Shown here: positions 1-20,113 of the stretch, in pieces
Layout: each line of letters starts with the position of its first letter
How positions within the stretch are numbered: position 1 is the first letter of the stretch
Made by a program: the position numbers and the translations under genes
Notes under the pieces: generated by a model
Told to the model about the DNA's origin: nothing
The model's input: the letters and a program-made list of their open reading frames with translations, nothing else
Database searches by the model: none
DNA from: Streptomyces rimosus subsp. rimosus
GTDB taxonomy: Bacteria; Actinomycetota; Actinomycetes; Streptomycetales; Streptomycetaceae
Length of the DNA: 24,000 nucleotides
Direction of reading: 5' to 3'
NCBI RefSeq assembly: GCF_000720725.1
Contig: NZ_JOCQ01000023.1
Coordinates: 41,688-65,687 of the forward strand

Positions 1-741
1 TGCGGATCGGCCGCCCGCCGCGACGCCCTCGGCGCCGAACTGACCCGGCTGGCTATCGGCCACCACCTGCCCGGCCACGAGGTCCTGGCACGCATCGTCC
101 GCCTCCAGGCCCTCGCCGGACTCGGCGACCTCGCGGCGGCGGACGCGGAGGCCGAGGAGATCGACCGGCTGGCACACCGCAACGAACGGCCGCTCGCCGC
201 GGTGTTCACCTCCTGGTACCGGGCGCTGCGCACCTGCGAGACCGACGGGTGGCCGGCGGCCCGCCCCGCATACGCGAAGGTCCTCGCGGAGACCGCGAAC
301 TGCGGCATGCCCGGACTGGTCCGGGGAGCGGCCGTCCTGGTCGCGCTCGTCCCGGTCATGCGGGGCGACGCCCTGCCCCGCCCCGACGACTTCGCCGGCC
401 TGGACGCGGGCCCGTACCGGCCGTGGCTCGACCCCCTGCTGCTGGCCGCCTCCGGCGCCACCGAGCGGGCCCGGCACGCACTCGCCACGGTTCCCCGGCC
501 GCCCCACGACCTCCTCCAGGAGGCGCTCTGGTGCGTACTGGCCCGTACGGCCGCGGCAGTGGGACACGAGCCGGTCCTGCGCCGGGCCCGCAACGAACTC
601 GCCGATGCTGATGGCGAGTTGGCCGGAGCAGGCAGCGGCCTGGTCTCCTTCGGACCGGTCGCACGCCAGCTGCGGGCCATCGACGCGGCCCTCGGCCAGG
701 GCGCACCGTGCGCTACGGAGCCGGCTGACGGCGGTACGTAG
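1..741 (+). CDS. hypothetical Ala/Leu-rich helical protein, C-terminal part (5' end outside window)
   Basis: Frame 1 is open from base 1 to TAG at 739-741. The listed ORF 202-741 is only the Met-initiated part, and the upstream translation (...LTRLAIGHHLPGHEVLARIVRLQALAGLGDLAAADAEAEEIDRLAHRNERPLAAVFTSWY...) is continuous with it. Third-position GC is high. I did not recognise a family. Confidence 0.6.
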   Translation, partial: CGSAARRDALGAELTRLAIGHHLPGHEVLARIVRLQALAGLGDLAAADAEAEEIDRLAHRNERPLAAVFTSWYRALRTCETDGWPAARPAYAKVLAETANCGMPGLVRGAAVLVALVPVMRGDALPRPDDFAGLDAGPYRPWLDPLLLAASGATERARHALATVPRPPHDLLQEALWCVLARTAAAVGHEPVLRRARNELADADGELAGAGSGLVSFGPVARQLRAIDAALGQGAPCATEPADGGT

Positions 742-750
742 CAGCGGTGG

Positions 751-2037
751 TCATCGGCCCGTGTACAGCAGCCGGTTGCGGGAGTCCTGGCCCGCGTCCT
801 TCACGTGGTCGGCGGTGGAGGCCGCGATGAGCGCCTTGTCGAGTTCGACCGGCGTCGCCCCGGGGTGGCCGGCGAGGTACATCGCGGCGGCACCGGTGGT
901 CTCGGCGGTGGCGGCCGAGGTGCCGGTGAGCTTCACGTAGGAGCTGTTGCCGCGGTTGCCGGCGGTGGTGATGTCGCTGCCGGGCGCGAACAGGTGGACG
1001 CAGTAACCGTAGTTGGACCACGCGGGGCGCTTGTCCTCGCGGTCGGTGGCGGCGACGGTGATGGCGGTGGTCTGCCGGGCGGGGGTGGTCTCGCAGGACT
1101 CGACACCCCGGCCCGACGCGTCCCCGTTCCCGGCCGCGGCGGTGTAGGCGATGCCCTTGTGGGTCATCTGGTAGAGCTGCAGGTCGAGTACCGAGCCGGG
1201 CTCACCGGAGAAGCCCATGTTGACGACGGAGGGGCCGTCGGCGTGGGCGGTGATCCAGTCGACCGCGGACATGATGTGCTCCAGGGTTCCGGTGCCGTCG
1301 CAGCCGAAGGCGCGTACCGACTGCACGGTCGCCCCCTTGGCGATGCCGCTCCAGAGCCCCGCGGCGATGGCCGCCGAGGCGGTCCCGTGACCGTTGCAGT
1401 CGGTGTCGCCGCCGGGGCTCTGCCGGATGGCGTCGTACGCGCCGTGCGCCCGGCCGCCCAGGAACTCCTGATGGCCCACCCGGACGCCGGTGTCGACGAT
1501 GTAGGTGGTCACGCCGGCCCCGGTGCCCGAGAAGCCGTAGCGGCCGTCCAGCGGAAGATCGCGCTGGTCCACGCGGTCCAGCCCCCACGGCGGATTCAGC
1601 TGGACACCACCGGCGGGCCGGTGCGCGGCGGGCACCCGGGCGGGCCGCTGCTGCCCGGACAGGTGTCCGGCGACCCGGTAGGTCCGGTCGCCGGTGATCG
1701 AGTCGACGCGGGTGTCGGAGTAGTAGGTGTCCACCTGCTCGCCGGTCAGCGTCACCGAGAACGCCTGGGAGGCGGCGAAGTACACCCTGCGCAACTCGCC
1801 GCCGTGGGCGGCGATCAGCTCATGGGCCCGCTCGGTGACCGCTTCCTCGGTCGCCTTGGTGCCGTTCACCTCGATGATGTACACGGCCGGGGCGGAGGAG
1901 ACGAAGGAGACGAAGGAGACCCGGTTGCCCGGCACGGCCGACGACGCCGGGCCGGCGGACAGCGCGGGAACGGCCACGGCGATCGCCGCGGCGGCCGCCG
2001 CGGCGGCCCAGGGCTTCCTTCTGAGGGCCGCCATCAT
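751..2037 (-). CDS. secreted subtilisin-like serine protease (peptidase S8 with I9-type propeptide)
   Basis: Triad and oxyanion motifs are present: YIVDTGV (Asp), HGTASAA (His), AAGNG (Asn), GTSAATAETTG (Ser). The N-terminus MMAALRRKPWAAAAAAAAIAVAVPALSA looks like a signal peptide and is followed by a propeptide-like segment. The ATG at 2037 is preceded by GAAGGAGG 5 nt upstream. The 727-aa ORF-track version runs through the upstream genes and is an artefact. Confidence 0.9.
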   Translation of the reverse strand: MMAALRRKPWAAAAAAAAIAVAVPALSAGPASSAVPGNRVSFVSFVSSAPAVYIIEVNGTKATEEAVTERAHELIAAHGGELRRVYFAASQAFSVTLTGEQVDTYYSDTRVDSITGDRTYRVAGHLSGQQRPARVPAAHRPAGGVQLNPPWGLDRVDQRDLPLDGRYGFSGTGAGVTTYIVDTGVRVGHQEFLGGRAHGAYDAIRQSPGGDTDCNGHGTASAAIAAGLWSGIAKGATVQSVRAFGCDGTGTLEHIMSAVDWITAHADGPSVVNMGFSGEPGSVLDLQLYQMTHKGIAYTAAAGNGDASGRGVESCETTPARQTTAITVAATDREDKRPAWSNYGYCVHLFAPGSDITTAGNRGNSSYVKLTGTSAATAETTGAAAMYLAGHPGATPVELDKALIAASTADHVKDAGQDSRNRLLYTGR

Positions 2038-2052
2038 GGAGACCTCCTTCAC

Positions 2053-2087
2053 GGGGGATTTCTGCATGGGGGATTTCCGCATGGGGG
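2053..2087. repeat. 15-nt tandem direct repeat (two full copies and a partial third) just upstream of the S8 protease SD
   Basis: gggggatttctgcat (2053-2067), gggggatttccgcat (2068-2082), then ggggg... (2083-2087). One mismatch between the full copies. Confidence 0.85.
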
Positions 2088-2159
2088 TGGGCCTTTCGCC
2101 TTGCGTGGAGAGAGCGCCCGGGGCGTCGGCAGGAGAGGCGACGCCTCCCGGGTCAGGGC

Positions 2160-2192
2160 GGTGCCGCCGCGCACCGGGGTGGCGGCGGCACC
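2160..2192 (-). terminator. GC-rich stem-loop 6 nt downstream of the thioredoxin-like gene stop
   Basis: An 11-bp perfect stem, ggtgccgccgc (2160-2170) with gcggcggcacc (2182-2192), and an 11-nt loop. There is no clear U-tract, which is common in high-GC actinomycetes. Confidence 0.5.
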
Positions 2193-2198
2193 CGAGCA

Positions 2199-2645
2199 CT
2201 ACAGCCGGTTCAGCCAGTTGCGCAGCGAGCTGGGCCCGTCGAAGCCCACCAGGCGGCTTCCGGCCTCGCGGCCGTTGCGGATGTTGAGCAGCGCGGGGAT
2301 ACCGCGCACGTTGTACTTCTGGGAGAGGCCGGGGTTCTCGTCGACGTCGACCTTCGCCCATACCCAGGCGCCCTTGTCCTGGGTGTTGTACTGCTGGAGG
2401 TAGGGCTTCTGCTTCTGGCACCAGTAACACCACGAAGCGGTGAAGTCGAGCACGACGGGCTTGGTCTTCGACCACTGCATGACCTGGTCGTAGTTCGCGT
2501 CGGTCACGTCGACGACGGCGGGGATGTCGGCGGCGGGGGCGGCCGCCTCGGTCACGGGCGCCACCGGGGCGGCGATGGCCGCGGTGGCGGTGCCGCTGAG
2601 GAGTGTTGCCACTGCCGCGGTCACGACAGCCAGCTTGCGGTACAT
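2199..2645 (-). CDS. secreted thioredoxin-fold thiol-disulfide oxidoreductase (atypical WCYWC motif)
   Basis: The Sec-type signal peptide is MYRKLAVVTAAVATLLSGTATAAIA/AP. The thioredoxin-like core reads VVLDFTASWCYWCQKQKPYL...VRGIPALL, with a cis-Pro-like IP. The RBS GGAAGGGAA lies upstream of the ATG at 2645. Confidence 0.85.
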   Translation of the reverse strand: MYRKLAVVTAAVATLLSGTATAAIAAPVAPVTEAAAPAADIPAVVDVTDANYDQVMQWSKTKPVVLDFTASWCYWCQKQKPYLQQYNTQDKGAWVWAKVDVDENPGLSQKYNVRGIPALLNIRNGREAGSRLVGFDGPSSLRNWLNRL

Positions 2646-2740
2646 GGTCGGTTCCCTTCCGTGGAAATTTCGATGGATGTGTGCTGGGTGGACATGGCTG
2701 GGCGCACGTACGCGCGGGAGGAGGCGGAGTCCGGGCGTCC

Positions 2741-3094
2741 TCAGCCCGTGGCGGTCTGTGTCGGCAGACCGTGGGCGACCCAGTCCTCGATTCCCTCGCG
2801 GTACTTGCGCACGTTCGTGTAACCGAGCGACACCAGCCGGCTACCGACGATCTCGCTGTTGCGGCACGGCACGTTCGCGCAGTACACGACGATGGGAGCG
2901 GTACGGTCCGGCAGTACGGTGGGCGCGAGTTCATCGGTGAAGCGCGCCGCGTCGTCGTAGGGGAAGCCCGGAATGTTCACCGCGCCGGGCAGGTGCTCCT
3001 GCCCGTAGTAGGCCGTCGGCATGGTGTCGACCACGACGACCTTCCCGGCGTCCATTTCCGCTTTCAGTTCGTCTCGCGTCACCAGGGGGAGCAC
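2741..3094 (-). CDS. single-domain rhodanese-like sulfurtransferase
   Basis: The 117-aa protein has a rhodanese fold signature (VVVDTMP..HLPGAVNIP..) and the active-site loop VVYCANVPCRNS (Cys-X5-Arg with a second Cys). The GTG start at 3094 is preceded by GGAGG 5 nt upstream and lies only 18 nt after the permease stop. Confidence 0.85.
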   Translation of the reverse strand: MLPLVTRDELKAEMDAGKVVVVDTMPTAYYGQEHLPGAVNIPGFPYDDAARFTDELAPTVLPDRTAPIVVYCANVPCRNSEIVGSRLVSLGYTNVRKYREGIEDWVAHGLPTQTATG

Positions 3095-3112
3095 AACGGC
3101 CTCCGGCTCTCG

Positions 3113-4501
3113 TCATACGGTTCGGTCGGGGAGGGGGGTGCCCCGCGCGGGAGTGCCGCGCCGGGCGTACACCGCGCGGCCGGCCACCGCGTACAGGGCG
3201 AAGGCGGCCACGACGGCGTTGATGGCGGGGATGCCGAAGTCCAGGTACGTGCCGGCCAGCGTCCCGACGGCCCAGCAGATCAGGGACAACGGCTGCCAGT
3301 CGGGACCGTGTTCGGGCAGGACACCGGTACGCCGGGCCCGGTCGAGGCTTACGCGGTGGCGCCGGACGACGTAGTACTCGGCGATGATGATTCCGGCCAC
3401 GGGAGGGGCGAGCATCCCGATGGCCGTCAGGAAGCCGGTGAAGTCGCCGACCACGCCCAGGGCGGACAGGGCGGTGCCCGCGGCGCCGATGCCCAGGGTC
3501 ACGGCCCGGCGGCCGATGCGGCGGCCGAAGAGCACATCCACGCTGTTGACCGTGGCCAGCGCGGACGAGTACAGGTTCCAGTCGTTGATCTTCAGGATCG
3601 CCGTCGCCAGGATCAGCGTGCCCAGCAGGCCGGACGAGGTGGTGATGATGCCCACGACGTCCGCGGTGCGGGCGGCGTGACCGAGCAGCACCGCGGTCAG
3701 GCCGATGAGGTACTCCCCCAGCGTCACGCCCAGCAGCGTCTGCTTGACGACGTCGGAGGGGCGGCGGTTGAAGCGCGTCATGTCCGGCGTCATCAGGGCG
3801 CCGAGGATGAAGGCGCCGGCGACCAGCGTCGTCCCCTGTGCCAGGGACATCACGGGGCCGGGCGGGGCGCCGGTCAGCAGCTCGTTCAGCGAGTGGCCGG
3901 CCAGCGTGTCCACCACCGACCAGCCGGCCAGGAGGAGGAAGGCGGGCACGGCCAGATACGCCGTCCACGCCATGATGCGGAAGCCGAAGACCGAGACGGC
4001 GGTGACCGCCGCGCCGCCGAGGACCGCCCAGGCCCACTCCGGCGCCCATGCGGCGAGCTGGTGCATGCCGTGCGCGAAGACGCCGTTCTGTACGCCGAAC
4101 CAGCCGGCGAGGCTGAACGCCACCAGCACTCCGACGGCGGCGGAGCCCTTGCGGCCGAAGCCCGACCAGCGGGCCAGCACCGAGGTGGACACCCCCTCCC
4201 GCACTCCGGCGACGCCCAGGAGGATCGTGACGATCTCCAGCATCACCGAGCCGACGGTGATGGCGATCACCGCGTCGGTGAAGGCCATGCCGTAGCCCAG
4301 GACGGCGCCGACCATGAACTGCTGGAAGGAGGAGACCTGGCCGAAGCGCTGCACGGCCACGCTGAACCAGGAGCGGCGGGCCTCCTCGGGGACCGGGGTG
4401 AGCGAGTAGTCGTCCTGGGCCTCGTTCCCCGCGGACCGGACGGCCTTCTTTCCGGTCCGGGGCGGCACGTCGCCGCTGCCCGTGTTCTCAGCCGACGCCA
4501 C
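3113..4501 (-). CDS. NCS1-family (cytosine/purine/uracil/hydantoin-type) permease, about 12 TM
   Basis: It resembles CodB-type permeases throughout, for example RRSWFSVAVQRFGQVSSFQQFMVGAVLG, TPDMTRFNR and INDWNLYSSALA. I prefer the GTG start at 4501 because AGGAGG sits 6 nt upstream. The ATG at 4570 and GTG at 4468 are alternative starts. With the 4501 start the gene overlaps the CDPS 3' end by 14 nt. Confidence 0.85.
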   Translation of the reverse strand: MASAENTGSGDVPPRTGKKAVRSAGNEAQDDYSLTPVPEEARRSWFSVAVQRFGQVSSFQQFMVGAVLGYGMAFTDAVIAITVGSVMLEIVTILLGVAGVREGVSTSVLARWSGFGRKGSAAVGVLVAFSLAGWFGVQNGVFAHGMHQLAAWAPEWAWAVLGGAAVTAVSVFGFRIMAWTAYLAVPAFLLLAGWSVVDTLAGHSLNELLTGAPPGPVMSLAQGTTLVAGAFILGALMTPDMTRFNRRPSDVVKQTLLGVTLGEYLIGLTAVLLGHAARTADVVGIITTSSGLLGTLILATAILKINDWNLYSSALATVNSVDVLFGRRIGRRAVTLGIGAAGTALSALGVVGDFTGFLTAIGMLAPPVAGIIIAEYYVVRRHRVSLDRARRTGVLPEHGPDWQPLSLICWAVGTLAGTYLDFGIPAINAVVAAFALYAVAGRAVYARRGTPARGTPLPDRTV

Positions 4502-5228
4502 GGGCCGCCTCCTGTGCCGGTACGGCTCCGGTCCGGAGCTGCGTCCCGGGCCGGTCCTGCGCCGCTTCACGGACGACCAGGAAGCCCTGCCCGCCCGTCG
4601 GCTGCAGGCTCAGTTCCCGGCGGAAGAAGCGCTCCAGGAAGGCGACCCGTTGGTGGTAGACGAAGAACGAGACGCGGTGTCCGGCGATGCCCCCGGCGTC
4701 GATGAAGAGCGGCAACTCGGCGAGGAAGTAGCGCACCGCTTCACGGAGTTGGTCCTCGGTCGCGGTGATGCCCGGCGGGAGCTTGTGCTCCAGCACCCAG
4801 TGCGAGGCGTCGAGACACGCGGCGCGGAAGGACTCGTCCTCCTCGTAGCGCAGGTGGACCTCGTCGAACAGGGCCAGATAGCGGGGAGTGCGGTGCAGCC
4901 GGTCCATGCCCCAGACCAGGCCCGCGGGGTCCTCCACGCCCAGTGCGCGCAGCGCCGTGGTGATCTTGTTGTGTACGTACTGTCCCTGCCGCCGGGCCTT
5001 GTGGCGGGCGTGGTCCAGGTCGTACCCCAGGGCCCGCAGGGTGTGCGCGGCCGCCATGTCCGGCACGAAGAAGTGGACGCTCTCGAAGCGCGTCACGGCC
5101 CAGTCGGCCAGTCGCCGCAGGCGCGCGGTGGTGAAGTAGCTGTTGAACGGGCTGACTCCGATGCACACGTGAGTGGCCGTCGGCAGGTAGCCGCGACATC
5201 GCTCGGTCAGTGGTTCAATGACAAACAT
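4488..5228 (-). CDS. cyclodipeptide synthase (tRNA-dependent, NYH-type signature)
   Basis: CDPS hallmark motifs align to AlbC. CIGVSPFNSYF matches GISAGNSYF (catalytic Ser plus Asn), YFLAELPLF matches YVLAEAPLF (Tyr and Glu), and FVYHQ matches CYHID (Tyr-His). The ATG at 5228 is preceded by GAGGA 5 nt upstream. The ORF-track start at 5240 is a GTG four codons further up. The protein is 246 aa, typical for a CDPS. Confidence 0.9.
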   Translation of the reverse strand: MFVIEPLTERCRGYLPTATHVCIGVSPFNSYFTTARLRRLADWAVTRFESVHFFVPDMAAAHTLRALGYDLDHARHKARRQGQYVHNKITTALRALGVEDPAGLVWGMDRLHRTPRYLALFDEVHLRYEEDESFRAACLDASHWVLEHKLPPGITATEDQLREAVRYFLAELPLFIDAGGIAGHRVSFFVYHQRVAFLERFFRRELSLQPTGGQGFLVVREAAQDRPGTQLRTGAVPAQEAARGVG

Positions 5229-5495
5229 CTTGATCCTCACACGGTGATGCGGACGAGCCCCCCTCGCACGGCCGGTCCGGCCGGCCCGTGAAGCGATGAC
5301 TGGAATAGTGACGGCGCAACAGTTGACTGAGTACTGCCGCCGGGTAATACCAATTGCGCAAACCCCCGCCCGGCTAGCGGAGAGTGCCCACCGGCAAGCG
5401 GACGGTGATCACCGAGAATGAACAATTCCGGAGAAACGAACACGTTGGGCTGAGGCCCTGGCGAATGCATCGGCAAGCGGCTTAACTCTTGGCTT
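5229..5495. promoter_or_regulatory. divergent promoter region between the CDPS operon and the LysR regulator
   Basis: This is a 267-nt intergenic region between divergent genes and is locally AT-richer. Overlapping palindromes CAATTG (5351-5356) and TTGCGCAA (5354-5361) are candidate LysR-type operator elements. I could not assign -10 or -35 boxes. Confidence 0.4.
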
Positions 5496-6416
5496 ATGGA
5501 TCTGCAACTTCGCCACTTACGGCAACTTCGCGTAATTTCCGACGCCGGAAGCCTGAACAGGGCCGCGACCGCGCTCGGCCTGCCGCAGCCGGCCCTGAGC
5601 CGCCAGATACGCAGACTGGAAGAACTGTTCGGCGGAACGTTGTTCGAACGCGATCGGCACGGCACGCGCCCATCCCCTTTGGGAAGCGCCGTACTGGACC
5701 ACGCAGAGTCCATCCTGCGCACCTTCGACGACCTGACGGAGCAGGTGCACGACTACCGCAGGCTCAGACGCGGGACACTCAGGGTCGGCTGGGCCCACAG
5801 CGGGCTGTACGAACCCATCCTGGGATGCCTGCGGCAGCTGTCGTGCGACGGGAACGTCCAGATCACGACCTCCGGTTCCAGCCGCGAGCTGATGGACCTG
5901 CTGCGGGCGGGGGAGATCGACATCGCCCTGCGCGACCACTCGTCGACCGACGGCCCGGTACCCACCCGTGACGGCGCGATCGGGCACGTCGCCTGGGCGG
6001 AGTCCCCGGTGCTGCTCGCGGTGGCGGCCGGTACGGCACTGGCCACCGCGGAACGTCTGACCATGGCGGACCTCGCGGGCGAGGACTGGATCTCCTGCAC
6101 CGGGCCGGACGCCTGCGACGACAAGCTACGCCGGCTCTGCGCCGCCTACGGGTTCAGCCCGCGCATCACCCACGACGTCACGGTGTCCGGACCCCGCGGC
6201 GCGGTGATCCGGCACCAGGGCTGCGTCGCCCTGACGCAGGCCTACCGCCCCCTGCTGCCGGGCGTGGTGCGGCGCACCGTGGACGACCTGGCCATGCGGG
6301 TGACGCATCTGGTGACCTACCGCATGGAGAGCTGGATCGCCGCGAAGGTGCCGCGGCTGGTCACCCTGCTGTCCGCCGCCTACCGAGGACAGGCCACGGA
6401 TCCCGAGTTGTCATGA
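5496..6416 (+). CDS. LysR-family transcriptional regulator (contains a TTA codon at codon 8)
   Basis: The N-terminal HTH is LRHLRQLRVISDAGSLNRAATALGLPQPALSRQIRRLEELFGGTLFERDRHGTRPSPLG, followed by a substrate-binding-type C-terminal domain. It is divergent from the CDPS operon. Confidence 0.9.
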   Translation: MDLQLRHLRQLRVISDAGSLNRAATALGLPQPALSRQIRRLEELFGGTLFERDRHGTRPSPLGSAVLDHAESILRTFDDLTEQVHDYRRLRRGTLRVGWAHSGLYEPILGCLRQLSCDGNVQITTSGSSRELMDLLRAGEIDIALRDHSSTDGPVPTRDGAIGHVAWAESPVLLAVAAGTALATAERLTMADLAGEDWISCTGPDACDDKLRRLCAAYGFSPRITHDVTVSGPRGAVIRHQGCVALTQAYRPLLPGVVRRTVDDLAMRVTHLVTYRMESWIAAKVPRLVTLLSAAYRGQATDPELS

Positions 6417-7366
6417 ACATAGAAATTCAGGACCTGCGGGTGCTGCGCGCCGTCGCCGAGAGCGGAAGCCTGGCCGGCGCGGCACGCAGCCTCGGGGTCA
6501 ACCAGGCCGGCGTCACCCGCCGGATACAGCACCTCGAACGGGTCACCGAACTCGTCGTACTGCACCGCGACCACCAGGGCGCCCGTCTCACCGCGGCCGG
6601 CCGGCTCCTGCTGCGCTGGGCCGACGACCTGCTGCCCAAGGTCGACCGTCTGCTGACCGCCTGCGGCCGCGAAGGCATCCCCGGACCTTCGGCCGAACGC
6701 CTGCGCATCGGCGCGGTACCCACTCCGGCCCTCCCCCTGATCACCAGCCTGCTCCGCGCCCATCTGCCGTCGACCGCCATCGAGCCGCGCACCGTTGGGG
6801 ACACGCTCCGGGAGGCGGCCTGCGAAGCACCGGCCGCGGGCCACGGCACCGCCCTGCCGGACCTGTTCCGCTCCCACTGCCTCGACCTGGCCGTCGTACG
6901 GCACTGCGTCGCGCTGGACGCCCCCCTGCCCGCCCTCTTCGGCTCCGCCGTACTCGCCGAGGAGAACCTCCTCATCGGCACCGTCGCCGGGCACCGCCTC
7001 GCAGGCAGGCCCTCGCTCCTGCTCGGCGACCTCGACGGAGAGACCTGCCTGCTCGTCGGCGGCCGGCGGCACGCCGACCTGCGCCGCCACTTCACCGCCG
7101 CCGTCCGGCACGCCGGCGTCCGCGTCTGGCTGCGCTGGGCGTCCGACGAGGCCGAGGCCGCCGCGCTGGCCTGCGCGCTGCCCGGAGTACTGCCCGCCTA
7201 TCCGCTCCCCGCGCCGAAAGCCGGCATGATCTACACCCCGCTCACCGACGACCGTACGCGTCATCGGCTGCTGCTGGTCTGGGAGGCGGACGGACCGGCC
7301 GCCGACTGGGCGCCCGGTCTCGCGGACCTGGTCCGCGAGACCTACCGACGCGCCGACCAGGCGTGA
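6413..7366 (+). CDS. LysR-family transcriptional regulator (second, divergent copy)
   Basis: The HTH is LRVLRAVAESGSLAGAARSLGVNQAGVTRRIQHLERV...ARLTAAGRLLL. Its start ATG overlaps the upstream stop as ATGA at 6413-6416. Confidence 0.85.
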   Translation: MNIEIQDLRVLRAVAESGSLAGAARSLGVNQAGVTRRIQHLERVTELVVLHRDHQGARLTAAGRLLLRWADDLLPKVDRLLTACGREGIPGPSAERLRIGAVPTPALPLITSLLRAHLPSTAIEPRTVGDTLREAACEAPAAGHGTALPDLFRSHCLDLAVVRHCVALDAPLPALFGSAVLAEENLLIGTVAGHRLAGRPSLLLGDLDGETCLLVGGRRHADLRRHFTAAVRHAGVRVWLRWASDEAEAAALACALPGVLPAYPLPAPKAGMIYTPLTDDRTRHRLLLVWEADGPAADWAPGLADLVRETYRRADQA

Positions 7367-7374
7367 GGGGACAG

Positions 7375-7445
7375 AGGTGGAGACAGGATTCGAACCTGTG
7401 TGAACGGCTTTGCAGGCCGTCGCCTCGCCTCTCGGCCACTCCACC
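7375..7445 (-). tRNA. tRNA-Cys (anticodon GCA), 71 nt, CCA not encoded
   Basis: The reverse complement folds by hand into a cloverleaf: GGTGGAG-TG-GCCG-AGAGGCG-AGGC-G-ACGGC-CTGCAAA-GCCGT-TCAC-ACAGG-TTCGAAT-CCTGT-CTCCACC-T. It has a 7-bp acceptor stem, 5-bp anticodon and T stems, a TTCGAAT T-loop and the U73 discriminator typical of tRNA-Cys. Confidence 0.9.
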
Positions 7446-7612
7446 GATACGGAATGCGCTCCGCGTCCGCCGGAACGCCGGCCGGAATAGACACTGCCCG
7501 ACCCGGCCCGATCTCTCGGCGTGGCCGTGACTGTAGCAACCTCGGGCCCGCACAGGAATACCCGCGTCCGACTCCGCCGGAGAAATTCCTGGCACTTCCC
7601 GGTGCCTTCGGA

Positions 7613-7626
7613 GCACCAGCTGGTGC
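7613..7626. promoter_or_regulatory. perfect 14-bp palindrome GCACCAGCTGGTGC upstream of the MFS gene
   Basis: The sequence equals its own reverse complement. It is flanked by repeated GGTGCCTT(TT)CGG elements at 7601-7611 and 7622-7634, and lies about 85 nt upstream of the proposed GTG start at 7710. Confidence 0.3.
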
Positions 7627-7709
7627 CTTTTCGGCATACCCGTCGACAGAACCGCCACGTGAAGTTTGAATGCCCCGGGAATCCACGCCTCAAGGGAATC
7701 GGTGACAGC

Positions 7710-9281
7710 GTGATCGAGCAAAAGTCCGGACCAATACGGAAGTGGTGGGCTTTCACGGGCCTGGGCATTCTGAGTTTTCTGGGATGCATCGACCTGACCA
7801 TCGTGAGCACCGCGGCACCCGTCATCCAGGACGACCTCGGCGCGACGGTCACCGAACTCCAGCTGATCGTCAACGTCTTCGTCGTGGCCCTGTCCACCGG
7901 CATGGTCGCCACCGGCCGCTTCTCCGACAGCCACGGACGGCGCAAGGTCCTCTACATCGGAGCCGTCGTCTTCGCCCTCGCCTCCCTGTGCGCGGGATGC
8001 GCGACCACCGCACCGTGGCTGATCGCCTTCCGCTTCTGCCAAGGAGCGGCCTGCGCCATTCTCTACACCGCCACCGGAGCCCTGGTCTCCGCCATCTTCC
8101 CCCCGCACGAACGCGGCCGGGCCATCGGAAGCCTCTACGGGGTCAACGGACTCGGCCTCGCGGCCGGCCCCGTACTCGGCGGCCTCCTCGTCGGCCCGGC
8201 GGGCTGGCCATGGATCTTCTGGCTCAACGTACCGCTCGTCGTGGTGGCACTGGCCATCTGCCTGCCCACTGTTCCCGAGTCCTACGGCGAGAAGATGACG
8301 GGCGGCATGGACTGGCCCGGGCTGGCCCTGCTGTTCACCTCCGTTCCCTCGCTCGTCCTCGGGCTGACCCTGGGGCACACCCAGGGCTGGAGCACCGCCG
8401 GCATCATCACCCTCCTCCTCTACGGCATCGCCGGTCTCGCTGCCTTCGTACAGGCCGAGTTGAGGGCGCAGAACCCGTTGATCCGCTTCCGGCTGTTCGC
8501 CCGGCGCGCCTTCCTGAGCGCGGTCACCGCCGACTTCGCGCTGGCCTTCTTCTACTGCGTCGCCCTCTTCCTGATGCCCTTGTACCTCCACACGGTGGGC
8601 GGCTTCGACGGGCGCACCACCGGCCTGCTCCTGCTCCCCTGCACAGCCGCCGTCGCCGTTCTCTCCCCACTGGTCGGCCGGCTCGTCGACCGGTGGGGGC
8701 CCCGGCGCCTGCTCTGCCTCGGCTTCCTGGCCTTCGCCCTGTCCGCCCTGGCCCAGACCAGGCTCACCCCGGACACGGGGACACCCGCCCTCATCGCGGG
8801 CTTCACGTTGATGGGCATCGGCTGGGCTCTCGTCCTCGGCCCCGCCACGGTCGCCGCGCTGTCCGCGGTGCCCGGCCACTTGGCCGGCACAGCCGTCGGG
8901 GCCTCGTGGACCGGCCACAACCTGGGAGGCGCCCTGGGCCTCGCCGCCGGCATGGAGGTCTACCGCCTCGCGGCACAGGCCGCCCTGTCCGACCGGCTCG
9001 ACCGCCTGGGTTTACCCGGCGGAGCCTGGACAGCTCAGGCGGTGGAGAACCCGCAGGCCGGCTCCGCGCTCCTGCAACGTCACACCGGCCTCGGCGCGCA
9101 ACAGGCCACGCAGATCAGCAACGCCGTGTTCACGAGCGGCAGTCGAGCCGCCATGTGGCTCCTGCTCGTGGTCGCCCTGACCGCCCTGCTCATCATCACC
9201 GTAGGGCTGCGCCCGGCACGCACGCCTCGGGCGGAACACACGACGGCACCAGATCGGTCCGAAGCAGGGCCACGGCTCTGA
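7710..9281 (+). CDS. MFS transporter, DHA2/EmrB-like (probably 14 TM) drug:H+ antiporter type
   Basis: The N-terminus RKWWAFTGLGILSFLGCIDLTIVSTAAPVIQDDLG and motif A GRFSDSHGRRKVLYIG are present. A length of about 523 aa from GTG 7710 fits 14-TM DHA2 proteins. The ORF-track ATG at 7521 would add a non-hydrophobic, Arg-rich 63-aa extension. The exact start is uncertain. Confidence 0.8.
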   Translation: MIEQKSGPIRKWWAFTGLGILSFLGCIDLTIVSTAAPVIQDDLGATVTELQLIVNVFVVALSTGMVATGRFSDSHGRRKVLYIGAVVFALASLCAGCATTAPWLIAFRFCQGAACAILYTATGALVSAIFPPHERGRAIGSLYGVNGLGLAAGPVLGGLLVGPAGWPWIFWLNVPLVVVALAICLPTVPESYGEKMTGGMDWPGLALLFTSVPSLVLGLTLGHTQGWSTAGIITLLLYGIAGLAAFVQAELRAQNPLIRFRLFARRAFLSAVTADFALAFFYCVALFLMPLYLHTVGGFDGRTTGLLLLPCTAAVAVLSPLVGRLVDRWGPRRLLCLGFLAFALSALAQTRLTPDTGTPALIAGFTLMGIGWALVLGPATVAALSAVPGHLAGTAVGASWTGHNLGGALGLAAGMEVYRLAAQAALSDRLDRLGLPGGAWTAQAVENPQAGSALLQRHTGLGAQQATQISNAVFTSGSRAAMWLLLVVALTALLIITVGLRPARTPRAEHTTAPDRSEAGPRL

Positions 9282-9330: not shown

Positions 9331-10542
9331 TCATGTGGAACTGCCTGCCGGCTTGGCGGGCAAGAGGCCGCCGAGTGCGGCGGCAGCGCGGGCGACAGGG
9401 GTGTTCATGATCCTTGCGACGCTGGAGTGACCGGCGATGTAGGTGTCCAGGTGACGCCATGCCGGAGGCAGGCGTGTCAATGCCGTGTGCAGGAGGGCCG
9501 GGTTCCGGATGAAGAGGTCCGCCAGGGCCGCGCTGGCGCGCATGTCGACGCCGAGGATGTCGTCGACCTGCTGTGCGTAGTGGTCGGTGGCCGACTTCGC
9601 TTCGTCCTCACCGGCCGCGGCGACGAGCCGGGCGGCCGCGCGGCCGGCGAAGGCTCCCGAGTGCAGGGCGTACGAGATGCCTTCCCTGGACCAGTGGTCG
9701 ACCAGTGCCGCGGCGTCCCCGGCGACCAGTACATGTCCGCGGGCCAGCGGGGAGTCGGGGCGGCGGCAGCGGGTCAGGTGGCCGGTGTCGTGGAGGGGGC
9801 GGGCCGTGTGGAGGCTGTGGCGGGTGAGGAAGTCGTCCTTGTAGGCGCGCAGAGCCGCGGGGTTGCCACGGGAGGCCACCACCCCGGCGGTGCAGATGTC
9901 CCCCTTGGGGAACACCCAGCCGAAGGAGCCGGGCAGCGGCCCCCATTCGAGCAGGACACGGCCGCGCCACCGGTCGGCCGTCCGCGCGTCCACGGGCGTT
10001 TCCACTTCGAGGGCCAGATCCACTTGGGCGCATCGCACCCCGACGTAGCGGGCGACCCTGCTGGCGCTGCCGTCGGCGCCGATCACGGTACGGGCGCGAA
10101 GCGGGTCTCCGTGATTGGTGCGCACGGTGACGGTGCGGCCCTGTTGCTCCAGGGTGGCCAGTGCGGTGGAATCGCGGACCGTCGCACCCGCGGCGGCCGC
10201 CGCCTCGGTCAGTGCCGCGTCGGGTTCGCTGCGGAAGACCATGGCACAGGTGGGGGTACGGGACGTACGGGTGCGTTCCCTGCGGCCGTTGAGGCTGAAG
10301 GTGAACAGGCGGGTCGTATCGAATACGTTGAGGGGCAGGCCGGGAGGCAGGGCCGACAGGGAGGCCCCGATGAGGCCGCCGCCGCACGTCTTGTAGCGCG
10401 GGATGGCAGCACGTTCCAGCAGCAGCACCTCACAGCCGTGCCCGGCGGCCACACGGGCCGCGGTGGCGCCGGCCGGTCCGGCGCCGACGACGATCACGTC
10501 CCGGGTTTTGGTGGTGCGGGAGGGGGCGGAGTGGGCTGACAT
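9331..10542 (-). CDS. geranylgeranyl-reductase-family FAD-dependent oxidoreductase
   Basis: The Rossmann motif [15 protein letters not shown] sits at the N-terminus. RYKTCGGGL is the GGR-type Cys motif, and VLVAGDAAALVD is the second FAD motif. The ATG at 10542 has GGAGG 10 nt upstream. Confidence 0.85.
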   Translation of the reverse strand: MSAHSAPSRTTKTRDVIVVGAGPAGATAARVAAGHGCEVLLLERAAIPRYKTCGGGLIGASLSALPPGLPLNVFDTTRLFTFSLNGRRERTRTSRTPTCAMVFRSEPDAALTEAAAAAGATVRDSTALATLEQQGRTVTVRTNHGDPLRARTVIGADGSASRVARYVGVRCAQVDLALEVETPVDARTADRWRGRVLLEWGPLPGSFGWVFPKGDICTAGVVASRGNPAALRAYKDDFLTRHSLHTARPLHDTGHLTRCRRPDSPLARGHVLVAGDAAALVDHWSREGISYALHSGAFAGRAAARLVAAAGEDEAKSATDHYAQQVDDILGVDMRASAALADLFIRNPALLHTALTRLPPAWRHLDTYIAGHSSVARIMNTPVARAAAALGGLLPAKPAGSST

Positions 10543-13500
10543 GCGGTGGTCGCCTCCGAGTCGCGGAGACGGACGGGGCGGACGCTTCGGCTTCCGGGGA
10601 CCGGCGGGGCGACGGAGTGGCGGGGGTGTCCGGCCCCGGTTCGGGGTGCAGCCGGCCCAGGAGGTAGTGGGTGAGAGCGGAGGCCGTGGGGTGGGTCCAC
10701 ATGACCGTCGTGGGGATGTCCAGGGCCATCTCGCGTTGCAGGCGGTTGCGCAGGGCGATGGCCATGAGGGAGTCGAGGCCCAGCGTGACCAACGACGTGT
10801 CGGCGTCGAACCGGTCGGTTCCCACGCGCAGCACCGAGGCGATGTGTTCGACCACCCGGGGGATCAGGATCCCGTGCCGCTCCTGGGCGCTTCCGGCCGC
10901 CTTCAGCGATTCCAGCAGAGCGTTGCGGGAGCCGGATGCGTCGGTGTCCTCGGCCGGGGCGGCGAGGTCCGCGAAGAAGGCGAGGCGGCTGGTGGCGGGG
11001 TAGGACTCCAGCCACTGTGCGAAGTCGGCGGGGGTGTAGGCGGTGCGGGCACGGTTGTGGGAGAGGATGCGTTCCAGGGCGGCGATGCCTTCCTCCGGCG
11101 CGATCATGGCGTAGCCACGCCGGGCCATTCCCGCGCCGCGGCCGACCTCTGCCCACGGCCCCCAGTTGACGCAGGTGGCGGGCAGTCCTTGGGCGCGGCG
11201 CCAGGAGGTGAACTCGTCCAGCCAGGCGTTGGCCGCCGCGTAAGCGCCCTGCCCGGGGTTGCCCAGCAGGGAGGCCGCGGAGGAGAAGGTGACCCACCAG
11301 TCCAGGCCCTGGCCGCGGACGGCGTGGTGGAGGAGCCAGGCACCGGTCGCCTTGGGGCGCCAGACCTTCTCCAGCAGGTCGGGGGTGAGGTTGGCGACGG
11401 TGGCGTCCTCCACGACGGCCGCGGCGTGCACAACGCCCCGCAGGGGGTGGCCGGTCGCCAGAGCGCCGCGCACCAGAGCATCGGCGGCTCCCGGTTCCGC
11501 GATGTCTCCGTTGATGATTTCGACACGGGTGCCGGAGGACGCCGTGATCGCGTCGAGGGCGGTCCGGGCCGCCGCGGAGGGGGCGCCGCGGGAGGAGAGC
11601 ACCACGGCTCCGGCGCCTCGTTCCGCCAGCCACCGGGCGACCAGGAGTCCGAGCCCGCCGAGCCCGCCGGTGATCAGGTAACTGCCGTCGGGCCGGACGA
11701 CGGTGACGTCCCGGGGCCGCACCGGCAGGCGGTCGGTGCCGTCGGCGGGCCAGGTCAGGACGAGTTTGCCGATGTGCTGGGCGGAGGCCATGGTGTGGAA
11801 GGCGGCGGACGCCTCGGCCACGGGATGTTCCGTACGGGGCAGGAGCGGCAGCGTACCGTCGGCGAGCATGCCGGTCAGCTCGCGGAAGCCGGCGGCGAGC
11901 GTGTCCGCGCCCTCCAGCATCATCCGCAGGACATCGACACCGCAGAAGGTGACGTTGTGGCGGAAGGGCAGCAGGCCCAGGCGGGTGTTGGCGTAGATGT
12001 CCCGCTTGCCGAGTTCCACGAAGCGGCCCTGGTGCGCCAGCAGGTCCAGGCCCGCGGTCTGGGCAGGCCCGGTGAGGGAGTTGAGGACGACATCGACGCC
12101 GCGGCCCGCGGTCAGATCACGTACCTGGCCGGCGAAGTCCAGGGTCCGGGAGTCCAGTACGTGTGAGATGCCCAGCTCGCGCAGGAAGGCCCGCTTCTTG
12201 TCACTGCCGGCGGTGGCCAGGACTTCCGCGCCGCAGGCCCGTGCGAGGTGCACGGCGGCCAGCCCGGTGCCGCCGCTCGCCGAGTGGATCAGCACCCGCT
12301 CCCCCGGCCGCAGCCGGGCCAGGTGCCGCAGGGCGTACCAGGCGGTCAGGTAGGCGCAGGGCAGCGCGGCCGCCTCGCGGGTACTCACCCGGCCCGGGAG
12401 GCGCAGGACGCAGTCGGCGCGGACGGTCGCGAAGGAGGTCATGACGGCGCTCTCCGTGGCGTCCACGAACATCGCGGCCACCCGGTCCCCGGCCCGCACG
12501 TCCCGGACGCCCTCCCCGACGGCGGTGACGCGGCCCGCGCCGTCGAACGCGCAGGCGTCCGCCGTCTCCCCCTCGGTGCTGAAGTCCCGGTACACGCCCA
12601 TGGCCTGGAGTACGTTGATGAAGTTGACGCTGGTGGCGTCGAGCCGTACCTCGATCTCGCCCGGTCCGGGCCGTCGCCGGCGCTGGGCGACGCGTTCGAA
12701 GGAATCCAGATCGCCGACGCGGGCGAGGTGGAGGGCCACCCGGTCACGCCGCCGGTCGACGGTCCGGTCGCGGCGCTCCCGCTCGTCCAGCGGCGTGTTG
12801 CGCAGCCGGGCCAGGAGGCGCTTCCCGTGCCGGTAGGCGATCTCGTCCTGGTCATCGGGGCAGGTCAGCAGTTCGGCGGCCACCTGCCGTACCGGCGTCC
12901 GCGCATCGACGTCCAGGATGCCGGGGCGCAGTTCGGGATGCTCGTAGCTCAGGACCCGTACCAGTCCGCGCAAGCCCGCCTGGCCCACGTCCGGCCGGTC
13001 TTCTGGGGCCACGTGCTGAGCGGTGCGGGTGACCGTCCACAGCCGGGGCGCCGTCCCGCCGTCGGCGTACTTCGCCAGGCAGCGGGCCGTCGCCAGCAGG
13101 TGGGTGACCCGGTTCCGGGCCTGCTGGTCGGGGGACAGGCCGTCGGAGGCGGTGCCGGGTGCCGGAAGGTACACCACCGCCTGCGGTGTGTTCTTGCCGG
13201 AGCCGGTGGGGCCGGTGGGACCGAGCGGGTCTGGACCGTCCTCGCCGAAGTCGGCCGAGGCGGGCGTCAGGACCCGTACCGCGGCACCCTGTTCTTCCAA
13301 CACCTCGCCGAGCGCGGCCGCATAGGCTTCCTGCCCGGCCTCCGTCACCAGCGTCCAGGCTCCGGTGGCCGCCTGCGGCGCGGGGCGTTCGCAGGGGTCC
13401 CAGACCGTCTGCAGCAGTCGGTTCGCGAAGCGCTCTTCCGGGCTCTCGGCGGGTACGTGGTGGAACTCCACCCCGGTGGCGTCCGCGACCACCTTGCCGT

Positions 13501-16500
13501 TGTCGTCCCAGAGCCGGAAGTCCGCCGTGTACCGGCTGCCGTCCGCCCGCGTGAGCGTCACCAGGCAGTATCCGCTGAGCGGGACCGGGCCGTACTGCCG
13601 CAGCGCGCCGATCCGCCGCGGCAGGATGCCGCCCGCGGGCACGGCGTCGGTGCGCAGGACGGCGGCGGCCACCGCTTGCAGGCAGCTGTCCAGTGCGACG
13701 GGGTGCCAGTGGAGCACCGGAGCGCCCGCCCGGCCTTCGTCGGGCACCTGAAGTCGCGCCAGGAGGCGATCGCCTTCGGGGTGCCGCGCGGACCGCTGCT
13801 CCGGCGCGTCGGCGTACAGGGCCCGCAGACCGAGGAAGGGCGGCCCGTGGTGGACGCCGCGTTCCTCGCGCATCTGCCGGTAGATCTCCGATGCCTCCAC
13901 GAGATGGGGGAACTGCTTGCGCAACTGCGCCGGGTCGCAGCCCACCGGGGCGCGCTCCCCTTCGGGGACCACGTGCAGGCTCGCCCGGGCGTGCTGGACG
14001 GCCGTACCGTCGGAGGCGGTGCTGACCACCCGCCAGCGGGCGCTGTCCGGGCCGGATGCCTCGGCGGTGGCGGTGACGCGGGTGCCGTCCGCGGCCGGCA
14101 GCAGCAGCCGCTGCAGATCGATACCGGTGACGCGGAGGCGTTCCGTACCGGTGCCGTACAGGTCGGCCGCGGCGGCGATGGCCATCTCGCACAGGGCGGC
14201 ACCGGGCACCACGACGACATCGTTGACGCGGTGTGCGGCCAGCCAGGGCAGCGTCGTGGGGGTGATCAGGGTCTGCCACAGGTGGCGGCCTTCGCCGTCC
14301 GGATCCGCCGTGCGGGGGCCGGTCAGCGGGTGCGAGGCGGCCGGTTGCCGCAGCGGAGACGGATCCACGATGTACCGCCTGCGCTCCCAAGTGGTGGGCG
14401 GGACGTCGGCCAGGGAGCCGGTCCTGTAGCGCTCGGCCCAGTCCAGCGGATGGCCGGCGCAGTGCAGGGCTGCCACGTGTGTGTGGAAGGCCAGCATGTC
14501 GTCGGTGTCGCGCAGCAGGGAGGGCAGGGCCGCCGCGCCGGTGTGTCCGTACTCCGCCAGCGTGGCCTGTACGGGCTGGAGCAGGACGGAGTGCGGGCCG
14601 ATCTCCACGAACAGCCGGTGTCCGTCCTCGGCCGCGGCGCGTACCGCGTCGGCGAAGTGCACGACCCGGCGGAGGTTGTCCGACCAGTAGGCGGCGTCGA
14701 AGGCGACGGGTGCGCGCGGATCGTCGGAGACGGTGCTGTAGAAGGCCGCCGTCGGGGGCGTGCCGGTGACGCCGGTGAGCGCGTCGGCGAGGTCGGGCAG
14801 GATCGGGTCCATGTGGGCGGTGTGCGAGGCGACGTCCACTTCGACCACGCGGATGCCGACGCCGCGGGCGTCCCATTCCCGGGCGACCCGGCGGATGGCG
14901 TCGGCGTCTCCCCCGATGACGGTGTTGTGCGGCGACGCCACGACGGCGACGGTCACCCGGCGTACGTCCTGTTCCGCCAGGAGCTGTTCGACCTCCGCGC
15001 GCCCCAGGGCGACCGAGGCCATCAGGCCCCGCCCCGCGGTCCGCAGGATCAGGCGCGAGCGGCGGCAGATGACCCGTGCCCCGTCCTGGACGCCCAGTCC
15101 CCCGGCGGCCACCGCGGCGGCCACTTCGCCCATGGAGTGTCCGATCACGGCCGCCGGTTCGACGCCGTGCGCACGCCACATCGCCGCCAGCCCCAACTGG
15201 ATGGTGAAGATCACCGGCTGGACCCGGTCGAAGCCGGTCACCACCTCGGGCCGGGACAGCGTCTCCCGTACGGAGAAGCCGGACTCGGCGCGGACCAGCG
15301 GTTCGAGTTCGTCGACCACCCGGGTGAACTCCGGGACGCGGTCCAGCAGTTGTCGGCACATCCCGGCCCACTGCGAACCGTGTCCCGAGAACACCCACAC
15401 CACGCCCGGGCCGGGCTCCGGTACGGCCCGCCCGGTCGCCACCCCGGCGGGTGACGCGGTGCCGGACGCCAGCTCCTCCAGTCGTGCTGCGAGTTGGGCC
15501 CGGCCGACGGCGACGATCCCGGCCCGCTCCCGTGCGTACGAGCGCCGTACGGCCAGGGTGTGCGCCACATCGCCGAGCGGCACGCGCGCGCCCTCTCCCC
15601 GCAGCCAGCGGGCCAGGCGTACGGCCGCGGACCGCAGGGCCACCGGTGTGCCCGCGGAGAGCGGGAACACGCGCGGCACGTCACCGTCTTCCCGGCGCTC
15701 CGGCGCGACGGACGCACGCCGTCGGACGGCGCGGCGGCCGGCCGCGGGGGGCTGCTCAATGACGGCATGGGCGTTGGTCCCGCTGATGCCGAAGGACGAG
15801 ACGGCGGCCAACCGCGCCACTCCCCGCACCGGCCACCCGGTGGTGGCGGTGGGGACGAACAGACGGGAGCCGCTGGGGTCGATCTGCGGGTTCCAGCGGC
15901 GGAAGTGGAGGCTGGCGGGGACCTGGCCGTACCGCAGGGAGGCGATGGCCTTGAGCAGCCCGGCCAGGCCCGAAACCGGTTCGGTGTGGCCGAGGTTGGT
16001 CTTCACCGAGCCCAGCGCGCACCGGCCGCGGCCCCTGCCGTACACCGCGGCCACCGCGGCGAACTCGATCGGGTCACCGACCGCCGTGCCCGGGCCGTGT
16101 CCCTCCACCATCCCGACGTCGCCGGCCGCGACGCCCGCGCGCTCCAGCGCCTGGCGGTAGAGCTCGATCTGGGCGGGCTCCGACGGAGCGCTGAGCCGGG
16201 TGCCGCGGCCGTTCTGGTTGACCGCCGTGCCGCGCAGCACCGCCAGCACCCGGTCACCGGCCCGTACGGCGTCCGCCAGACGCTTGAGGACCACCACCGC
16301 ACAGCCCTCCCCGCGTACGTAGCCGTTGGCGGCGGCGTCGAAGGCGTGGCAGCGGCCGGTGGGAGAGAACACGCCCCAGAGCGCGGGGGCGGTGACGCCC
16401 TCCGGGCCGAGGGACAGCATCGTGGCGCCTGCCAGGGCGATCTCCGTCTCTCCTGTGCGCAGGCTCTGGCAAGCGGTGTGCACCGCGACCAGACCCGACG

Positions 16501-17047: not shown

Positions 17048-17168
17048 GCGACACTCTCCTTCCTTTGCTCCGAGACATTCACGGAGGCGATCGGACCGTT
17101 GTCCGCCGCATTTCCGGGTCCCGCACGTATCCTCCATCGCGCCGTACGGCCGCGGTCGTCCGATCGAT

Positions 17169-17187
17169 TTCCGGCCCGGGGCCGGAA
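17169..17187 (-). terminator. stem-loop 5 nt after the UbiB-like gene stop (possible terminator or attenuator before the PKS)
   Basis: ttccggcc-cgg-ggccggaa forms an 8-bp perfect stem. There is no U-tract. It sits in the 145-nt gap between the kinase stop (17193) and the PKS start (17047). Confidence 0.35.
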
Positions 17188-17192
17188 CTCTT

Positions 17193-18605: not shown

Positions 18606-18667
18606 GAGGGAACCGCCTCGCCGGTGAAACAGGAGAACAGCAGCGGACCGCCGAGGAACCGGAACGG

Positions 18668-19270: not shown

Positions 19271-19321
19271 GCGTGAGCCGCCTTTCATCGATATAGGTGA
19301 TCGACCGGTCCGACACCACGT

Positions 19322-20024: not shown

Positions 20025-20113
20025 ATCTTCGGCCGCGGGCCGGCCAGGCCGGTCGAATCCTGGGCATCACGTCCGAAGCGCCGCCGAAAACTGCCGGTAT
20101 CCGGCCAGGCCTG

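Follow-up and report, generated by a model that had tools for sequence, protein, structure and literature searches.

A conserved actinobacterial gene set that couples a cyclodipeptide synthase to an NCS1 permease, a rhodanese and an exported thioredoxin, and its possible link to cyclo(L-Cys-L-Cys)

Why would the gene for a cyclodipeptide synthase (CDPS) be tightly coupled to genes for a permease and a rhodanese, with no enzyme of the kinds that usually tailor 2,5-diketopiperazines (DKPs) among its neighbours? The question is raised by a 24,000-nt stretch of DNA from Streptomyces rimosus subsp. rimosus (contig NZ_JOCQ01000023.1; hereafter the window, to which all coordinates refer unless another locus is named). 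Our best explanation, which as a whole we hold only tentatively and place just short of an even prospect, is that the genes here make up the core of an operon, conserved among actinobacteria, whose central product is cyclo(L-Cys-L-Cys) (cCC). That judgement blends two parts of unequal strength. It is likely, in our view, that the genes form a conserved cCC operon in which the permease, the rhodanese and an exported thioredoxin deal with the sulfur chemistry of the product; the specific cycle that we set out below is considerably less secure. The genes on which the argument turns are as follows.

5228-4488, minus strand: CDPS of the NYH subfamily (open reading frame 5240..4488; likely start ATG 5228, with GAGGA upstream; PF16715, E 2e-69; TIGR04539, 255 bits)
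4501-3113, minus strand: NCS1-family permease (start GTG 4501; PF02133, E 4e-25)
3094-2741, minus strand: single-domain, cytoplasmic rhodanese (start GTG 3094; GGAGG at 3104-3100; PF00581, E 6e-17)
2645-2199, minus strand: exported thioredoxin with a signal peptide and a WCYWC active site (PF00085)
2037-751, minus strand: secreted S8 subtilase with a signal peptide and an intact Asp/His/Ser triad (PF00082; ATG 2037, with AAGGAGG upstream)

The stop codon of the CDPS gene (TGA, 4490-4488) lies inside the permease gene, the two overlapping by 14 nt, and AGGAGG at 4513-4508 stands 6 nt 5′ of the permease start codon. The permease stop codon is at 3115-3113, and the rhodanese gene starts 18 nt further on. 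Re-reading the sequence in this way bears out the original prediction, which had placed the CDPS stop codon within a permease gene starting at GTG 4501, with AGGAGG 6 nt upstream, and a rhodanese gene with its own GGAGG 18 nt after the permease stop codon. The same prediction had drawn the unit as three genes under a divergent LysR regulator. The triad itself stands, as does the divergent regulator, but the limit to three genes does not, since the unit also takes in the exported thioredoxin, the S8 protease, a second LysR-type regulator, a tRNA-Cys gene and possibly a transporter of the major facilitator superfamily (MFS).

With one genome sampled per species, a scan found 177 CDPS relatives, of which we used the best 80; two of these 80 loci are contigs of ~1.2 kb that carry no context, which leaves 78 informative loci. 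The permease gene is present in 68 of the 78 (all locus counts are per species and do not represent independent events), and in 67 loci it follows the CDPS gene immediately, in the same orientation and in many cases with an overlap. The rhodanese gene is present in 67 informative loci and the thioredoxin gene in 66. Synteny of the triad in related genomes, a check that had been set beforehand, was thus kept in 67–68 of the 78. The syntenic loci span four orders and come from Streptomyces, Actinomadura, Pilimelia, Amycolatopsis, Lentzea, Saccharothrix, Actinokineospora, Actinosynnema, Crossiella and Streptoalloteichus. Identity to the window proteins is 67–97% for the rhodanese, mostly 62–90% for the permease and 47–89% for the CDPS, so that the partners are more conserved than the synthase. 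Absent from the genes conserved across the loci are cyclodipeptide oxidases, P450s, 2-oxoglutarate-dependent oxygenases, methyltransferases and prenyltransferases, in agreement with the earlier claim that the locus holds no canonical DKP-tailoring enzyme.

The genes occur in two architectures. In the first (architecture A: Streptomyces, Actinomadura, Pilimelia and part of Amycolatopsis), the order is CDPS, permease, rhodanese, thioredoxin and S8 protease, the S8 gene following the thioredoxin gene in 35 loci. In the second (architecture B: Lentzea, Saccharothrix, Actinokineospora and the A. orientalis group), the rhodanese–thioredoxin pair has moved as a unit beyond the divergent lysR gene, with an MFS gene and a gene for an exported M1-like protein nearby. 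This M1-peptidase-like protein takes the place of the S8 protease in locus L081 (12983-14371 of that locus, minus strand) and in 28 other loci; it is probably catalytically inactive, judging by its HEXXH zinc motif, which reads QAVAA.

In nine Amycolatopsis species the permease and the rhodanese are fused into one protein; in several of the genus, proteins of 559–562 residues carry both PF02133 and PF00581. In these fusions the last transmembrane segment of the permease runs directly into "MLPLIGREELK", the start of the rhodanese, with no extra membrane segment in between. The junctions between the two genes range from read-through (9 loci) through a stop codon that abuts or overlaps the start codon (~19 loci) and a gap of ~18 nt, as in the window (7 loci), to separated genes (29 loci). 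Both termini of NCS1 proteins are cytoplasmic, as established for Mhp1, which places the rhodanese at the inner face of the permease. Since the synteny extends across genera despite rearrangement, and is accompanied by this fusion, the association of the genes is far beyond chance, and we regard it as firm. Related species do inherit gene order, and raw locus counts overstate the number of independent events, which would suit the reading that the genes are neighbours by descent only, with no shared function. That reading is nevertheless close to refuted, for the association survives two architectures, four orders, an in-frame fusion and overlapping stop and start codons.

What does the synthase make? 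The PF16715 match covers the CDPS over its full length (1–220 of 220 positions), and the catalytic signature that the original prediction had read as intact was found in the motifs GVSPFNSYF (Ser26, Asn29), YFLAELPLF (Tyr167, Glu171) and VYHQ (Tyr191, His192), aligned with Rv2275, YvmC and AlbC. The window CDPS carries the residues by which the NYH subfamily is defined (AlbC Ser37, Tyr178, Glu182 and Tyr202, together with Asn40/Tyr202/His203). From an alignment we took the eight positions of the P1 pocket and the seven of the P2 pocket, a procedure that reproduced the published motifs of CDPS 4, 6, 100 and 102. The window pockets read CGFPMLFF (P1) and AWVHQVA (P2) and fit the consensus of the cCC group, P1 CGFPx[LM]FF and P2 AWVxQVx. 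Those of CDPS 7 read CGFPMLFF and AWVRQVA: P1 is the same, and P2 differs at position 159 alone, which is variable within the cCC group (K or G in CDPS 1 and 2).

The window CDPS matches a Streptomyces rimosus protein at 100% identity. It is 70% identical to its Streptomyces somaliensis orthologue, CDPS 7 (locus L002), and its characterised relatives also include CDPS 5 (Amycolatopsis azurea), CDPS 4 (Saccharothrix espanaensis), CDPS 6 and CDPS 2. The numbering of CDPS 1–7, 9 and 42–44 is reportedly that of Jacques et al. 2015. In the alignment file of Gondry et al. 2018 (PMC5816076), the S. rimosus CDPS adjoins CDPS 7. Table S2 of Skinnider et al. 2018 holds 11 entries of the CGFP type (1–7, 9 and 42–44), a count equal to the "11 characterised" members of the cCC group given in Table 3 of Gondry et al. 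2018. PRISM, moreover, predicts Cys,Cys for the orthologue loci of S. somaliensis and A. azurea. By homology to these characterised orthologues, the product of the window CDPS is predicted to be cCC. The alignment of the P1 and P2 pockets to characterised CDPSs had been named at the outset as a way to predict the substrates, and its outcome, together with the membership of the window CDPS in a characterised specificity group, means that the enzyme is not the enzymological "orphan" it had been called.

In the data of Gondry et al. 2018 (PMC5816076), the parent ion of cCC in E. coli supernatant has m/z 205, with fragments at −28, −45 and −73. This is 2 Da under the [M+H]+ of 207 that we calculate for the dithiol form and suggests that cCC outside the cell is the intramolecular disulfide.

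A predicted dithiol product gives much greater weight to the earlier proposal that the rhodanese points to sulfur chemistry on the product or to its redox handling. The loop VVYCAN-x-PCRNS is the same in all 68 orthologues of the rhodanese and holds two cysteines, Cys72 and Cys77. In alignment, Cys72 falls on the catalytic Cys of PspE and of yeast YOR285W; the loop is 1–2 residues longer than theirs and holds the second Cys, which is invariant in the wider family too. The AlphaFold model (predicted local distance difference test score, pLDDT, 97) shows a rhodanese fold whose central strand ends at the catalytic Cys. The standard six-residue loop, C-R-x-G-x-[RT], is replaced in the window by C-A-N-V-P-C-R, which has CX5R length. 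Such a length could point to a phosphatase or arsenate reductase of the Cdc25/Acr2 type, a candidate that we rejected, as the top structural matches of the model are single-domain sulfurtransferases and not Cdc25 or Acr2. The closest outgroup consists of 108-aa proteins with a C-x-N-x-x-C-x-N-S loop, and the outgroup genes examined had no informative context. A 2.4-kb metagenome contig encodes a 164-residue relative of the rhodanese (protein P0311) with the loop YCINPPCRNSE and a lipoprotein signal peptide; the signal implies that this type of rhodanese resides outside the cell in some organisms.

The thioredoxin carries an N-terminal signal peptide in 65 of 66 orthologues. Its CXXC motif is always kept, and the middle dipeptide of WCxxC varies (CPPC, CGPC, CYWC or CHWC). 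The window protein keeps the thioredoxin fold and WCxxC; it scores 70.5 bits against TrxA TIGR01068, whose cut-off is 96.8, and bears an export signal. The best NCBIfam match of the rhodanese is the rhodanese domain of TsoB (NF045694, E 1e-14), and the thioredoxin also matches, at lower rank, the thioredoxin-like domain of TsoB (E 3e-7), which we read as no more than a hint that domains of these kinds cooperate at a membrane step.

These features could also be those of a biosynthetic pathway for a sulfur-modified DKP natural product, in which the rhodanese adds sulfane sulfur to form a persulfide or polysulfide bridge, the thioredoxin closes or opens the bridge, and the permease serves export or self-protection. 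The sulfurtransferase fold and the position of the catalytic Cys would suit such a role, as would the fact that no other tailoring enzyme is conserved; dithiol and disulfide products, as is generally known for gliotoxin and holomycin, usually have a dedicated redox enzyme. Yet to our knowledge all characterised NCS1 proteins are importers, the thioredoxin is outside the cell and the rhodanese inside, and partners that are more conserved than the synthase and spread over four orders look more like physiology than like a variable antibiotic pathway. We consider such a natural-product pathway quite unlikely.

A further question is what the permease carries. Its NCS1 membership is clear (PF02133, 89 bits against a cut-off of 23.5). 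It aligns with CodB over 5–404 (E 2e-31) and weakly with Mhp1 over 30–447, and its best NCBIfam match is the CodB equivalog NF008241, at 184 bits against a cut-off of 326. According to the CodB structure paper, Gln105 is needed for cytosine transport, Trp108 and Phe204 sandwich the ring, and Thr278 and Thr279 bind sodium. In the window permease, Gln105 is replaced by Leu131 and Thr278/279 by Lys/Ile, and the aromatic pair is kept as Trp134/Phe231, all of these positions being invariant in the clade; the Lys in place of a sodium-site Thr suggests proton coupling. The CDPS-linked clade has signatures of its own (FGQVS[SA]F[QH]QF, SLAGWFGVQ and V[AS]GAF) that differ in the next relatives. These relatives (54–61% identity), in the four genomes examined, stand beside Hydantoinase_A, two PF06032 genes and OsmC. 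S. somaliensis is one of the four, and the permease relative there is a paralogue. The loci in question (L082, L083, L084 and L087; PF06032 is DUF917), some of them with a cysteine dioxygenase or pyridoxal-phosphate-dependent enzymes nearby, look like an uncharacterised pathway for the uptake and breakdown of a cyclic amide, possibly one that contains sulfur. The permease is thus a specialised branch within a lineage devoted to the import of cyclic amides for catabolism, and by analogy and gene context we propose that its substrate is the DKP, probably in the disulfide form.

The permease might alternatively import a compound unrelated to the DKP, such as a nucleobase, a hydantoin or a cysteine source, as a co-substrate or inducer. 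The family name and the best NCBIfam match, a cytosine permease, fit this idea, and the related clade does import the substrates of hydantoinase operons; but the Gln105 of CodB has become Leu, there is neither codA nor a nucleobase-transferring P450, and a nucleobase importer would have no obvious reason to be fused to a rhodanese. We judge it very unlikely. Two narrower versions were tried and rejected. A plain housekeeping codB orthologue, which the original prediction had named as a check on itself, does not match a protein that scores 184 bits where 326 are needed, has no Gln105 and no codA neighbour, and sits in its own clade near the permeases of hydantoinase operons. Nor is there support for nucleobase import towards a guanitrypmycin-like conjugate, which that prediction had offered as an alternative, given the same loss of Gln105 and the same lack of codA and of a nucleobase-transferring P450.

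Further features of the locus lie on the other side of the CDPS start codon.

5229-5495, no strand assigned: divergent control region between lysR and the CDPS operon, with candidate conserved blocks
5496-6416, plus strand: LysR-type regulator, divergent from the operon (PF00126 and PF03466)
6413-7366, plus strand: second LysR-type regulator, whose start overlaps the stop codon of the first lysR (PF00126 and PF03466)
7374-7445, minus strand (that of the operon): tRNA-Cys(GCA) gene (Rfam tRNA, 64 bits; tRNA-Cys by ARAGORN)
7521-9281, plus strand: MFS transporter, a possible exporter whose membership of the unit is uncertain (PF07690, E 5e-59)

Cys-tRNA(Cys) is the predicted substrate of a cCC synthase, and some Streptomyces carry a tRNA-Cys gene no more than ~6 kb from that for the CDPS. 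ARAGORN finds tRNA-Cys(GCA) in ten cluster loci (L001–L006, L008, L024, L017 and L018), always on the operon strand. Eight of the ten copies resemble that of the window in place and sequence type, and S. lichenis and S. pyxinae have a different tRNA-Cys, downstream of the S8 gene. Among the nine copies of the window type (the window included), five have C33 for the almost universal U33, which argues that the cluster copies bearing C33 are not the sole tRNA-Cys of the cell.

A lysR orthologue lies 170–370 nt upstream of the CDPS gene in most loci, and the second lysR occurs in both architectures. In 13 Streptomyces loci the intergenic region between lysR and the CDPS gene holds conserved blocks, namely AGTTAAGC..CCAG, TGCG-N7-GGCATAACC-N5-GGCAGTACTCAG and then CCATTCCAGTCATCGC. 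A GC-rich inverted repeat, CACGGGCCGG..CCGGCCGTG, is seen ~40 nt before the CDPS start. Blocks and repeat could represent a candidate LysR box plus a leader structure. At the Rfam gathering threshold the tRNA was the sole match, with no riboswitch or T-box in the 267-nt leader. A promoter and terminator scan of 600-7600 gave no matches, such a scan being uninformative for a high-GC genome.

How might these parts work together? The CDPS would condense two molecules of Cys-tRNA(Cys) into the dithiol diketopiperazine cCC, which would leave the cell, possibly via the co-located MFS transporter. Outside, cCC would engage in thiol–disulfide or sulfane-sulfur exchange catalysed by the exported thioredoxin, and in air it would finish as the intramolecular disulfide, a compact bicyclic ring that the NCS1 permease would return to the cell by proton symport and hand, at the cytoplasmic face, to the two-cysteine rhodanese, which would reduce or desulfurate it. 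The ring would in this way act as a diffusible shuttle for reducing power or sulfur between cytoplasm and cell surface, its likely beneficiaries being exported proteins such as the co-encoded protease, and the two LysR regulators would control the gene set. This specific cycle of export, outside exchange, uptake of the disulfide and reduction or desulfuration by the rhodanese is possible, although we hold it with clear doubt. More speculative, and rather unlikely as a whole, is the generalisation that a tRNA-derived cyclodipeptide conveys reducing power or sulfane sulfur across the membrane as a diffusible carrier, in effect a small-molecule analogue of DsbD, and that the same molecule serves copper and mercury defence at the sister loci described next.

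Ten long loci lack the permease context, and the pockets of their CDPSs deviate: position 119 is Trp, position 206 is Pro or Ile, or both changes occur. All ten (L032, L047, L051, L055, L056, L059, L062, L075, L077 and L080; likewise L085 and L086) lie amid genes for copper or mercury homeostasis, including those for a CopA-type ATPase, a CopZ-like HMA protein, a cupredoxin, MerR, CopCD, BlaI/CopY with M48, CDF, DUF305/DUF3105 and MerB. The pocket variants are those of the characterised cCC synthases 42 and 43, and this context suggests that cells can use cCC to defend themselves against thiophilic metals. It feeds the main rival to a sulfur or redox role: cCC might be a ligand for Cu(I), Hg(II) and perhaps Zn or Cd, acting as a metallophore or small-molecule metallothionein, which the rhodanese inside and the thioredoxin outside would keep reduced and the permease would recover as the free or metal-bound ring. 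In its favour, every one of the ten cCC-type loci without permease, rhodanese and thioredoxin has this setting, and the pocket motifs found there are those of characterised cCC synthases. Among the loci that do have the permease context, however, none has adjoining metal-homeostasis genes (the sole case being L036, with CopA ~9 kb away), their regulators are of the LysR type and not MerR, CsoR or ArsR, and the sister clade differs in its pocket (W119, Pro/Ile206), so that its context need not transfer. For the window we regard a metal-ligand role as unlikely.

Several observations weigh against the cCC operon and shuttle as we have drawn them. The assignment of a product to CDPS 1–7 rests on motif grouping, the count of 11 and the PRISM table; the substrate of the permease is guessed from analogy and gene context; and the rhodanese loop departs from the standard six-residue sulfurtransferase loop. 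No exporter is universally conserved among the loci, the MFS gene at 7521-9281 being conserved in the six closest Streptomyces loci only and a different MFS gene being present in 36 others. The protease partner differs by architecture (S8, or a seemingly inactive M1-like protein), which weakens the part of the model that concerns beneficiaries, and the presence of the sister CDPS clade in metal-resistance islands offers metal binding as an alternative role for cCC.

Beyond the MFS gene, positions 9331-21154 form a separate, unrelated biosynthetic region.

9331-10542, minus strand: FAD mono-oxygenase (no conserved counterpart in related loci except one weak match of 28%, in L013)
10430-17137, minus strand: highly reducing type I polyketide synthase (PKS), KS-AT-DH-ER-KR-ACP
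17193-18605, minus strand: ABC1 kinase
20114-21154, minus strand: type III PKS

We rejected the idea that the two PKS genes and the FAD mono-oxygenase gene belong to the unit, because they are not conserved with the CDPS loci.

The cCC group is among the larger predicted groups of CDPSs, with 60 of ~800 sequences in 2017. In the open-access literature (subscription journals may differ), the biological role of cCC has apparently never been explained, and we found there no paper on a CDPS gene set with permease, rhodanese and thioredoxin, none on cCC-type CDPS genes in copper or mercury islands, and no NCS1 protein described as fused or coupled to a rhodanese. Our analysis defines a conserved set of partners, a permease–rhodanese fusion and a linked gene for the substrate tRNA, and sets them against loci in metal islands. 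Were the shuttle to be correct, it would be a new route by which Gram-positive bacteria bring thiol chemistry to the cell surface; it would also be the first physiological, as opposed to antibiotic, role for a CDPS product besides pulcherrimin, and would provide the first diketopiperazine substrate for an NCS1 transporter.

The closest known relatives of the synthase are the NYH CDPSs that synthesise cCC, which have in common with it the family, the NYH signature and the pocket consensus. Two of them, CDPS 7 and CDPS 5 (L002 and L045), are orthologues from loci with the same gene neighbourhood as the window. Those enzymes were studied alone in E. coli, permease, rhodanese and thioredoxin going unmentioned in that work and in the Skinnider 2018 survey, and the PRISM entries for these clusters hold the CDPS gene alone. 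With Mhp1 and CodB, the window permease shares the NCS1 fold and the aromatic pair that sandwiches a planar cyclic amide; unlike CodB, it scores below the family cut-off, has lost Gln105, carries Lys for a sodium-binding Thr and is fused or coupled to a rhodanese.

At the level of the whole system, the pulcherriminic acid system of Bacillus (YvmC, the P450 CypX, the MFS protein YvmA and regulators) likewise has a CDPS product that acts outside the cell, a transporter dedicated to it and regulators encoded nearby. There, cyclo(Leu-Leu) undergoes oxidation by the P450, the transporter works in export and the product serves to chelate iron, whereas the operon here has no oxidase, a transporter of an importer family and chemistry centred on thiols. 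The gliotoxin (GliT) and holomycin (HlmI) pathways resemble the operon in that the dithiol/disulfide state of a cysteine-derived molecule is managed by pathway proteins; they differ in using FAD-dependent dithiol oxidases and assembly by nonribosomal peptide synthetases, in that their sulfur bridges ring carbons and not side chains, and in having no permease–rhodanese pair. TsoB, whose domains the rhodanese and the thioredoxin resemble, is a family of rhodanese/DsbD-fusion selenoproteins of unknown function. A Pfam scan confined to the window and L081 found no DsbD/CcdA membrane domain with paired cysteines. DsbD/CcdA proteins and their exported thioredoxin-like partners form a relay of thiols from the cytoplasm to the outside that ends in an exported thioredoxin, as proposed here, and if our model is right, a small molecule and its permease would take the place of the membrane domain.

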